Part shown: positions 5,066 through 6,677 of the stretch, one piece after another | How positions within the stretch are numbered: position 1 is the first letter of the stretch | How the letters are laid out: the number at the start of each line of letters is the position of its first letter | From: Eledone cirrhosa | Lineage: Eukaryota | DNA length: 64,000 bases | Direction of reading: 5' to 3' | Assembly (NCBI GenBank): GCA_964016885.1 | Contig: OZ024741.1 | Coordinates: 135,532,001-135,596,000, forward strand | Notes under the pieces: model-generated | Told to the model about the DNA's origin: nothing | The model's database searches: none | Seen by the model: the letters and a program-made list of their open reading frames with translations, nothing else | Position numbers and translations under genes: made by a program

Positions 5066-5352
5066 TTATATATATATATATTATATATATATATATATTA
5101 TATATATATATATATATATTATATATATATATAATATATATATATATATATATATATATATATATATATATATATATATATATATATATATATATTGGAA
5201 TAAATGCTCTGAAATAGCGATATATATGTGAATATAGACATAGAATATTCGAAAATATTCTGTATGTTTATAATAAACATTTTGAAGACCTAATCGCTAT
5301 AGAATAGAATACGTCACGTATTACAATTAGATTCTCGATAAAAGCAAGGGAA

Positions 5353-5395
5353 GTAATCGACGCGTTTCATTCTCGTTAGAAATCATCAGGACTAC
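5353..5395 (-). ncRNA. Type I hammerhead ribozyme, unit 1 (GUC site)
   Basis: GUAGUC-CUGAUGA-u-UUCU aacg AGAA-u-GAAAC-gc-GUC-GAUUAC; 16-bp distal stem 5331-5346/5404-5419. Confidence 0.85.
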
Positions 5396-5662
5396 ATATC
5401 CAGTGCTTTTATCGAGAATGACACAGCTAGAGACTTATAGAATACTTAGCTGTGTACAGGAACTGGTTTGAAAGAGCGGTTGCCGGTCCGGCAGAAATTA
5501 GAAATTGGAATAAATGCTCTGAAATAGCGATATATATGTGAATATAGACATAGAATATTCGAAAATATTCTGTATGTTTATAATAAACATTTTGAAGACC
5601 TAATCGCTATAGAATAGAATACGTCACGTATTACAATTAGATTCTCGATAAAAGCAAGGGAA

Positions 5663-5705
5663 GTAATCTACGCGTTTCATTCTCGTTAGAAATCATCAGG
5701 ACTAC
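5663..5705 (-). ncRNA. Type I hammerhead ribozyme, unit 2 (GUA site)
   Basis: Same fold, GAAACGCGUA. Confidence 0.85.
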
Positions 5706-5972
5706 ATATCCAGTGCTTTTATCGAGAATGACACAGCTAGAGACTTATAGAATACTTAGCTGTGTACAGGAACTGGTTTGAAAGAGCGGTTGCCGGTCCG
5801 GCAGAAATTAGAAATTGGAATAAATGCTCTGAAATAGCGATATATATGTGAATATAGACATAGAATATTCGAAAATATTCTGTATGTTTATAATAAACAT
5901 TTTGAAGACCTAATCGCTATAGAATAGAATACGTCACGTATTACAATTAGATTCTCGATAAAAGCAAGGGAA

Positions 5973-6015
5973 GTAATCTACGCGTTTCATTCTCGTTAGA
6001 AATCCTCAGGACTAC
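5973..6015 (-). ncRNA. Type I hammerhead ribozyme, unit 3 (CUGAGGA core, GUA site)
   Basis: Same fold; the substitution falls at the variable N7 position. Confidence 0.8.
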
Positions 6016-6282
6016 ATATCCAGTGCTTTTATCGAGAATGACACAGCTAGAGACTTATAGAATACTTAGCTGTGTACAGGAACTGGTTTGAAAGAGCGGT
6101 TGCCGGTCCGGCAGAAATTAGAAATTGGAATAAATGCTCTGAAATAGCGATATATATGTGAATATAGACATAGAATATTCGAAAATATTCTGTATGTTTA
6201 TAATAAACATTTTGAAGACCTAATCGCTATAGAATAGAATACGTCACGTATTACAATTAGATTCTCGATAAAAGCAAGGGAA

Positions 6283-6325
6283 GTAATCTACGCGTTTCAT
6301 TCTCGTTAGAAATCATCAGGACTAC
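6283..6325 (-). ncRNA. Type I hammerhead ribozyme, unit 4 (GUA site)
   Basis: Same fold. Confidence 0.85.
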
Positions 6326-6677
6326 ATATCCAGTGCTTTTATCGAGAATGACACAGCTAGAGACTTATAGAATACTTAGCTGTGTACAGGAACTGGTTTG
6401 AAAGAGCGGTTGCCGGTCCGGCAGAAATTAGAAATTGGAATAAATGCTCTGAAATAGCGATATATATGTGAATATAGACATAGAATATTCGAAAATATTC
6501 TATAAAATAACCCACACCCCCAAATAACTTCTCATTCACTACCAGAAGGCACACAGCAGTCAACTTGTTGCTACCAAGATGAAAACTACTATGACATCCC
6601 ACAATGAATTTTATACTTGAATTTTCAAATCTCAAATTTTAACTCTTCGTATTATTAATTTTTCTTAATATTAATCA

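Follow-up and report, generated by a model that had tools for sequence, protein, structure and literature searches.

The window, which is the whole analysed stretch of 64,000 nucleotides, carries a tandem array at positions 5194..6501. The repeat that the first-pass annotation had described there was reproduced by TRF (period 310, 4.2 copies, 99% matches) and consists of four full 310-bp units and 68 nt. Only two differences exist between the units, at 5359 (hammerhead position H17, C versus A) and at 6005 (N7, U to G), and these are the two that had been noticed originally. The array is a retrozyme arm on the minus strand, comprising 4.22 units of 310 nt, its RNA beginning (5′ end) at monomer position 98 and ending (3′ end) at the "long" site, position 165; monomer position 1 is the first base 3′ of the predicted cleavage site. 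The monomer measures 310 bp (GC content 34.5%), no ORF of 150 aa or more was found in the array at 5194-6501, and no terminal repeats were seen in the locus maps of the retrozyme insertions. Type I hammerheads are present on the minus strand in all four units, at 5331..5419 (hammerhead 1, in which stem I is extended, the cleavage triplet is GUC, and H17 lies at 5359), 5641..5729 (hammerhead 2, GUA, H17 at 5669), 5951..6039 (hammerhead 3, GUA, H17 at 5979, N7 being the G at 6005), and 6261..6349 (hammerhead 4, GUA, H17 at 6289), with C3 at 5389, 5699, 6009, and 6319, respectively. Cleavage would delimit three predicted monomers on the minus strand, namely 5669..5978 and, on either side of it, 5359-5668 and 5979-6288.

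The invariant core of the hammerhead is complete in four out of four consecutive units. Stem I is composed of 6 bp proximal to the core, followed by extensions of 3 and 16 bp, and stem III is palindromic and 2 bp long; the 16-bp extension, the palindrome, and both hairpins named in the first-pass annotation are all found on the minus strand. The hammerheads had been called intact, which holds for the core but not for stem II (4 bp), which is closed by U·U at 10.1-11.1, where G-C is usual. The same pair is A-U in 22 of 89 well-covered loci. The ribozyme was not called in an Rfam search, either at the gathering score or at E values of up to 10. From the U·U pair and the tiny stem III, weak cleavage of the monomer would be predicted. 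The circular fold of the monomer gave z = −4.7 against 100 shuffles, and the antisense circle folds equally well or better. Adoption of the active ribozyme fold within the circle is calculated to cost 6.7 kcal/mol, which counts against the explanation preferred below.

The 3′ end of the retrozyme RNA continues straight into a (TA)n target tract at 5067..5195, and the minus-strand stretch 5194..5233 forms a tail between a short priming zone (monomer 126-139) and a long one (156-172). At its other end the arm meets, with 1 bp of microhomology at the joint, the last 365 bp of a young Penelope-like element (PLE-2) that diverges from it (6502..6866, plus strand). This piece carries the minimal hammerhead of PLE-2 at 6682..6719 (plus strand; U3-A8 core, as in 20 of 20 motifs in relatives), and a further (TA)n tract at 6867..7025 lies at its 3′ end. 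Contig pieces from sequencing runs X1 and X2 contain the retrozyme unit over 340 nt with zero differences; the 6501/6502 joint was bridged by none among the run-contig pieces listed. Another type I hammerhead with a U3-A8 core is located at 4864-4913 (plus strand; Rfam Hammerhead_1, E 0.14), and the repeat that carries it supplies, with its own 3′ end, the TA tract entered by the retrozyme. The motifs at 4864-4913 and 6682-6719 were considered as decayed hammerheads; this was rejected, both being U3-A8 variants.

Other elements of the window were mapped as well. Two diverging arms in TA tracts occupy 27900-28800, with minimal hammerheads at 28199 (minus) and 28471 (plus), and belong to the same family as a 476-bp tandem in locus L126; a diverging pair between TA tracts at 29900-30350 has hammerheads at 30008 (minus) and 30164 (plus). 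A broken two-arm copy of a second Penelope-like element, PLE-1, lies at 41620-46600, and intact PLE-1 ORFs of 893-894 aa occur elsewhere (L125, L128); its protein gave no Pfam match. PLE-1 was considered as a partner of the retrozyme and rejected: the layout is the same, but its tail measures about 90 nt and it lacks homology to the monomer. The region 62674-63258 (plus) encodes 194 aa that we take, by motif, to be an RT-like fragment from yet another PLE family. Presumably, 9549-12275 (minus) is a LINE-like RT ORF of 908 aa broken by an (AAT)n tract, 14682-16053 (minus) a broken second copy of that element, and the plus strand of 11697-14059 a set of L1/Tx1-like fragments.

The size of the retrozyme family was determined from exact matches in the genome. 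A 24-mer of the ribozyme variant in the window gave 4,680 matches and its reversed control none, so these matches are not due to chance; a family-wide 27-mer gave 16,535 matches (reversed control 0) and hence at least that number of units. The 3′ junction of the window array with TA is present in 1,006 exact copies and the short-site junction with TA in 1,242 (controls 0), and the family is estimated at roughly 1,200-2,000 insertions. With a sporadic divergence of 0.047%, it is young, as had been proposed, and the counter-case named in the first-pass annotation, a single-locus array due to local duplication, fails against 16,535 units genome-wide. The mapped sample comprised 116 insertions (the window locus and 115 on contig C1) and is non-random: 15 loci were retrieved via internal patterns, 54 via the long junction, and 46 via a short or long junction that was unpaired. 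Two duplicates, L069 and L191, were removed. Additional sequence was used to complete the second arm at L049, L071, and L076; these arms were entered by hand, as were those of L077 and L185, which measure only 18 and 10 nt.

Two diverging arms were found in 96 of the 116 insertions, and every two-armed case diverges; the family-wide pattern, which involves no selection for ends, lists 14 two-armed loci among its first 18. In 94 of the 96, one end lies at monomer 126-139 (short) and the other at 156-172 (long), these sites being about 30 nt apart; the remaining two run off the edge of the retrieved sequence, and in none is the same zone used twice. The 3′ ends enter TA-type repeats in 122 of 129 cases (strict match, first 70 loci), one of the seven misses being a sequence edge. 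Both flanks are TA tracts, which would mask any target-site duplication. The 5′ ends are scattered, with 4 within 5 nt of the cleavage site versus 6 expected; their distribution looked uniform in 126 arms (p = 0.37) but not in a larger set (p = 0.027). The permuted ends expected of dispersed arrays are thus only partly borne out: the arrays are dispersed, but the scatter is confined to the 5′ ends, the 3′ ends lying in two fixed zones. Likewise, the units are tandem, but the typical insertion consists of two diverging arms of the PLE type and is not a plain tandem. One-arm loci number 20; the 5′ end abuts a simple repeat in 16 of them, two join another element, and two could not be scored; at L107 the retrozyme arm is joined into an older co-oriented element. 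Hallmarks described for PLEs are the targeting of (TA)n, an arm that is inverted and 5′-truncated, and a tail of 30-40 bp at one of the ends (PMC8557442, PMC3846280). In the retrozyme, the inverted 5′-truncated arm is present in 96/116 insertions and the tail at one end only in 94/96, and two autonomous PLE families of the same genome, PLE-1 and PLE-2, share the two-arm layout.

The arms are multimers of one unit, with up to about 47 units. Arrays of up to about 15 kb, in which variants recur at periods of 7 or 9 units, were observed at L071/L233, L230, and L050; local duplication, multimeric circles, or assembly effects are possible causes of the periodicity. Patchy, periodic variants in L050, L071, and L230 suggest that local duplication also acts in long arrays.

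The haplotypes of the two arms were compared, with exclusion of 15 loci showing duplication or alignment artefacts where the inverted arms meet. In 67 of the 70 loci compared, the arms agree; 33 haplotypes occur, and random pairs agree in 7.8%. Base changes were then classified in RNA sense as fixed within a locus or sporadic (89 loci, L058 and L115 excluded; 14 backbone markers picked by hand). Among 32 origins of locus-fixed changes, 17 are A>G and 2 are T>C, as opposed to 8 and 21, respectively, among 114 sporadic changes (p = 3e-5). Counted per distinct site, the fixed skew is weaker (11 versus 4, p = 0.025), and recombination between haplotypes could inflate the origin counts. The sporadic changes, taken over all mapped loci, are themselves skewed in the opposite direction (T>C 21, A>G 8). 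The change 276A>G, in a UAG context within stem I, occurs on five backgrounds and is fixed in every unit; 20A>G recurs on three backbones. UAG is a favoured context of ADAR. A fixed A>G change can extend through both arms, in the largest case through 23 of 23 units, and 24 of 42 fixed change types are private to a single locus. The share of A>G sites located in helices (7/11) is no significant enrichment (p = 0.08). The fixed A>G changes are likely to represent A-to-I editing of one RNA molecule that was then copied repeatedly. A change made in RNA and found in every unit of both arms is explained most simply by one molecule having been read many times, which in turn points to a monomeric circle with the minus strand as template. 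The rolling-circle copying of a monomer, as proposed in the first-pass annotation, thereby receives indirect support from the haplotype concordance, the fixed A>G changes, and the lack of a 5′-end pile-up at the cleavage site.

The distribution of changes over the ribozyme was compared with helices set by hand. Among 39 fixed substitutions none falls in the core and two break a helix, versus 44 of 120 sporadic ones in these positions (p = 7e-5). Because A>G confounds the signal of a pair being kept, the comparison was repeated without it, and core and helix hits then amounted to 2/28 fixed versus 43/111 sporadic changes (p = 0.001). With minimum-energy pairs the result was not significant (p = 0.34), since that fold mispairs the ribozyme core. 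Fixed changes spare the ribozyme core and helices, which is in keeping with selection on the fold and bears indirectly on self-cleavage.

A sister family, here called family B, gave 3,186 genome matches (unit about 318-321 bp; loci L081-L092 and L130-L144) and is older than the 310-nt retrozyme. Both priming zones and the hairpins are kept in it at 77-81% identity, the latter with compensatory changes as judged by eye, and the hammerhead is different. Most copies of the family B hammerhead seen have a U3-A8 core and some C3-G8, with a palindromic stem III of 10-12 nt. The combination of a shared priming half with another hammerhead suggests that ribozyme modules may have been swapped. At about 1990-2130 of L086, a short inverted element was observed whose stem II is close to that of the 310-nt family's hammerhead; it is a possible donor of the ribozyme module. 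The tail at 5194..5233 is the stretch most conserved with family B, and on this conservation it is a likely signal for the enzyme.

The array is best explained, with a probability of roughly 0.78, as the insertion of a young non-coding hammerhead repeat, a monomeric circle of which was copied repeatedly into (TA)n by a PLE enzyme. From the insertions we infer which enzyme was at work and that the RNA was cleaved, ligated, A-to-I edited, and copied by target-primed synthesis; the steps would be as follows. A minus-strand transcript would cleave itself, probably with help from the palindromic stem III folding as a dimer, and the 310-nt product would be ligated into a monomeric circle. Some circles would undergo A-to-I editing before being copied. 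The PLE enzyme would prime on both target strands of the (TA)n tract, at two fixed sites approximately 30 nt apart, and would reverse-transcribe the circle round and round, giving diverging multimeric arms of one haplotype.

It is improbable that the PLE machinery instead copies an uncleaved linear multimer, with the hammerhead as a passenger and the circle unnecessary. An edit or error in such a molecule would mark one unit, yet A>G is fixed throughout both arms, more than half of the fixed types are private to one locus, and the fixed changes spare the ribozyme. The multimer would, however, account for three of 68 loci (L067, L115, L201) in which the arms share a non-fixed change at equal distance from the 3′ end, including a haplotype switch after two units in both arms of L115, and unprocessed RNA is reported as the main substrate of the anole PLE in vitro (PMC11167929). 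The in-register changes, together with a mosaic at L058 in which only one arm gains 276G, and does so late, as though a different template had been taken up during synthesis, fit a linear multimer or a template switch. Template jumping on linear cleaved monomers, from the 5′ end back to the 3′ end with no covalent circle, would likewise pass through one molecule, and monomer position 2, beside the predicted ligation junction, is the site of one substitution and of two of the three fixed indel types (two insertion types and one A>G, fixed in 13 of 89 loci; possibly a scar of ligation or of RT). It is very improbable nevertheless, as the 5′ ends show no pile-up at the cleavage site and the junctions are seamless in almost all units. 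A satellite or foldback element at the DNA level, homogenised by unequal exchange and gene conversion, would be in keeping with the periodic variants in long arrays; against it stand strand-specific fixed 3′ ends with scattered 5′ ends, the A>G skew in RNA sense, and private changes common to inverted arms of only one or two units, and the arm sharing and the skew largely refute it.

PLE-2 is the best candidate for the partner that supplies the enzyme, as it has the same target and the same tail length; its ends are 31-35 nt apart in 11 of 20 loci. PLE-2 ORFs of 763-876 aa, natural examples of which are in L168, L171, and L182, give an RT match (RVT_1, E about 1e-6) and have a GIY-YIG-type C-terminus; a search of PLE-2 for the Pfam GIY-YIG domain gave no hit. 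For the Neptune clade, an RT followed by a CX2-5CxxC linker and then by a C-terminal GIY-YIG with CCHH was looked for, and the ORF at L168 shows CX4CxxC at 630 and IY...YIG at 668-683. By these motifs PLE-2 appears Neptune-like, and on the same motifs it may be Nematis. Its copies are 98-99% alike and thus older than the retrozyme burst, which counts against the preferred explanation. Comparison of the monomer with these two PLE families yielded only TA-rich noise for PLE-2 (best E 0.015) and no homology for PLE-1, so that pLTR homology to an autonomous PLE was found for neither.

Apart from one arm being foreign, the fused window locus has the appearance of an ordinary two-arm insertion. Somewhat favoured is the reading that the retrozyme arm was primed alone and that its 5′ end became fused to an older copy of PLE-2, part of the target being deleted, in which case the fusion is uninformative on the retrozyme's partner. 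Private differences number 3 over the 365 bp of the PLE-2 piece and 2 over the 1,308 bp of the retrozyme (p = 0.07), the outer end of either element is its downstream ("long") site and lies in a TA tract, the join at L107 provides a precedent, and the fusion is the only one in 116 insertions, with no other found in the 115 further retrozyme insertions or in 20 PLE-2 loci. Against this, the orientation, the microhomology, and the outer TA tracts are all as in ordinary arm-to-arm joints, tail length and target of PLE-2 match those of the retrozyme, and 16 of 18 scorable one-arm loci join simple repeats directly. Co-priming on two RNAs, of the retrozyme and of PLE-2, is put forward tentatively for the fusion. 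The long end of PLE-2 resembles the short site of the retrozyme in sequence (post hoc, by eye), a likeness that would preserve the rule of one end of each kind. It is doubtful whether the whole family can be read as a fossil record in which each insertion represents two rolling-circle products of one ADAR-edited circle made by a PLE dimer, and in which the dimer at the window held the circle and its own Neptune-like RNA, naming the partner.

For animal retrozymes, both the circular-RNA route and the identity of the copying enzyme have been proposed and little has been shown; evidence on the life cycle is described as limited by Li, Clavereau, and Pollet (bioRxiv 10.64898/2026.07.22.740005). 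In a very young family of more than one thousand insertions both points can be tested on the genome, and exact predictions follow for the two sites of priming (monomer 131-139 and 163-170), for the strand of the RNA, for a pair of editing hot spots (20 and 276), and for a candidate enzyme. The family also bears on how PLEs make inverted, tailed insertions. The genomic evidence for a PLE-driven cycle via a single, probably circular, sometimes edited RNA appears unusually good. A literature search found no paper on two-arm retrozyme insertions, on edits in retrozyme DNA, or on an octopod retrozyme, points on which supplements may bear; "ribozyme" and "retrozyme" are absent from the main text of a 2026 octopus repeat annotation.

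Judged by its sequence, the 310-nt family is a metazoan non-LTR retrozyme, a class already known. It shares with the retrozymes described in PMC7229834 tandem units of 150-450 bp with a type I hammerhead in each, a GC content below 50%, the lack of an ORF, and a self-paired predicted circle. The axolotl Rtz_353 (HHR_Amex2) also has U·U at the base of stem II; its monomer is reported to have cleaved to 22% and its dimer to a greater extent (PMC7229834). Diverging arms, fixed priming sites, TA targeting, and DNA-recorded edits distinguish the present family from those retrozymes as described, whose RNAs were demonstrated, that of the 310-nt family being predicted; Cervera and de la Pena (2020, PMC7229834) raise the possibility that heterogeneity among circles stems from RNA editing. 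The family also shows the minimum of two adjacent units bearing a full hammerhead used as a rule by Li et al., of whose predicted Xenopus retrozymes eight of nine failed to cleave (bioRxiv 10.64898/2026.07.22.740005). Co-occurrence with PLEs is common to both studies. Li et al. view retrozymes as non-autonomous PLE derivatives and draw the link from pLTR homology, with local amplification, whereas here it is drawn from insertion anatomy, with no homology to PLE-1 or PLE-2.

With endonuclease-bearing PLEs (Neptune, Naiad, Poseidon; PMC8557442, PMC3846280), as described, the retrozyme shares the inverted truncated arm, the 30-40-bp tail, and the targeting of (TA)n. The anole PLE protein is reported to nick and extend both strands in vitro and to use two RT start sites inside its own RNA that bound the tail, hammerhead cleavage being dispensable for insertion in vitro (PMC11167929); two such internal sites downstream of the hammerhead are suggested for the retrozyme by its end positions. 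Unlike these elements, the retrozyme has no ORF, and each of its arms is a multimer of one unit. Twin priming of LINE-1 also produces two diverging arms with their 3′ ends facing the flanks, whereas in the retrozyme the same sequence is covered repeatedly by both arms, and the two start sites are fixed.
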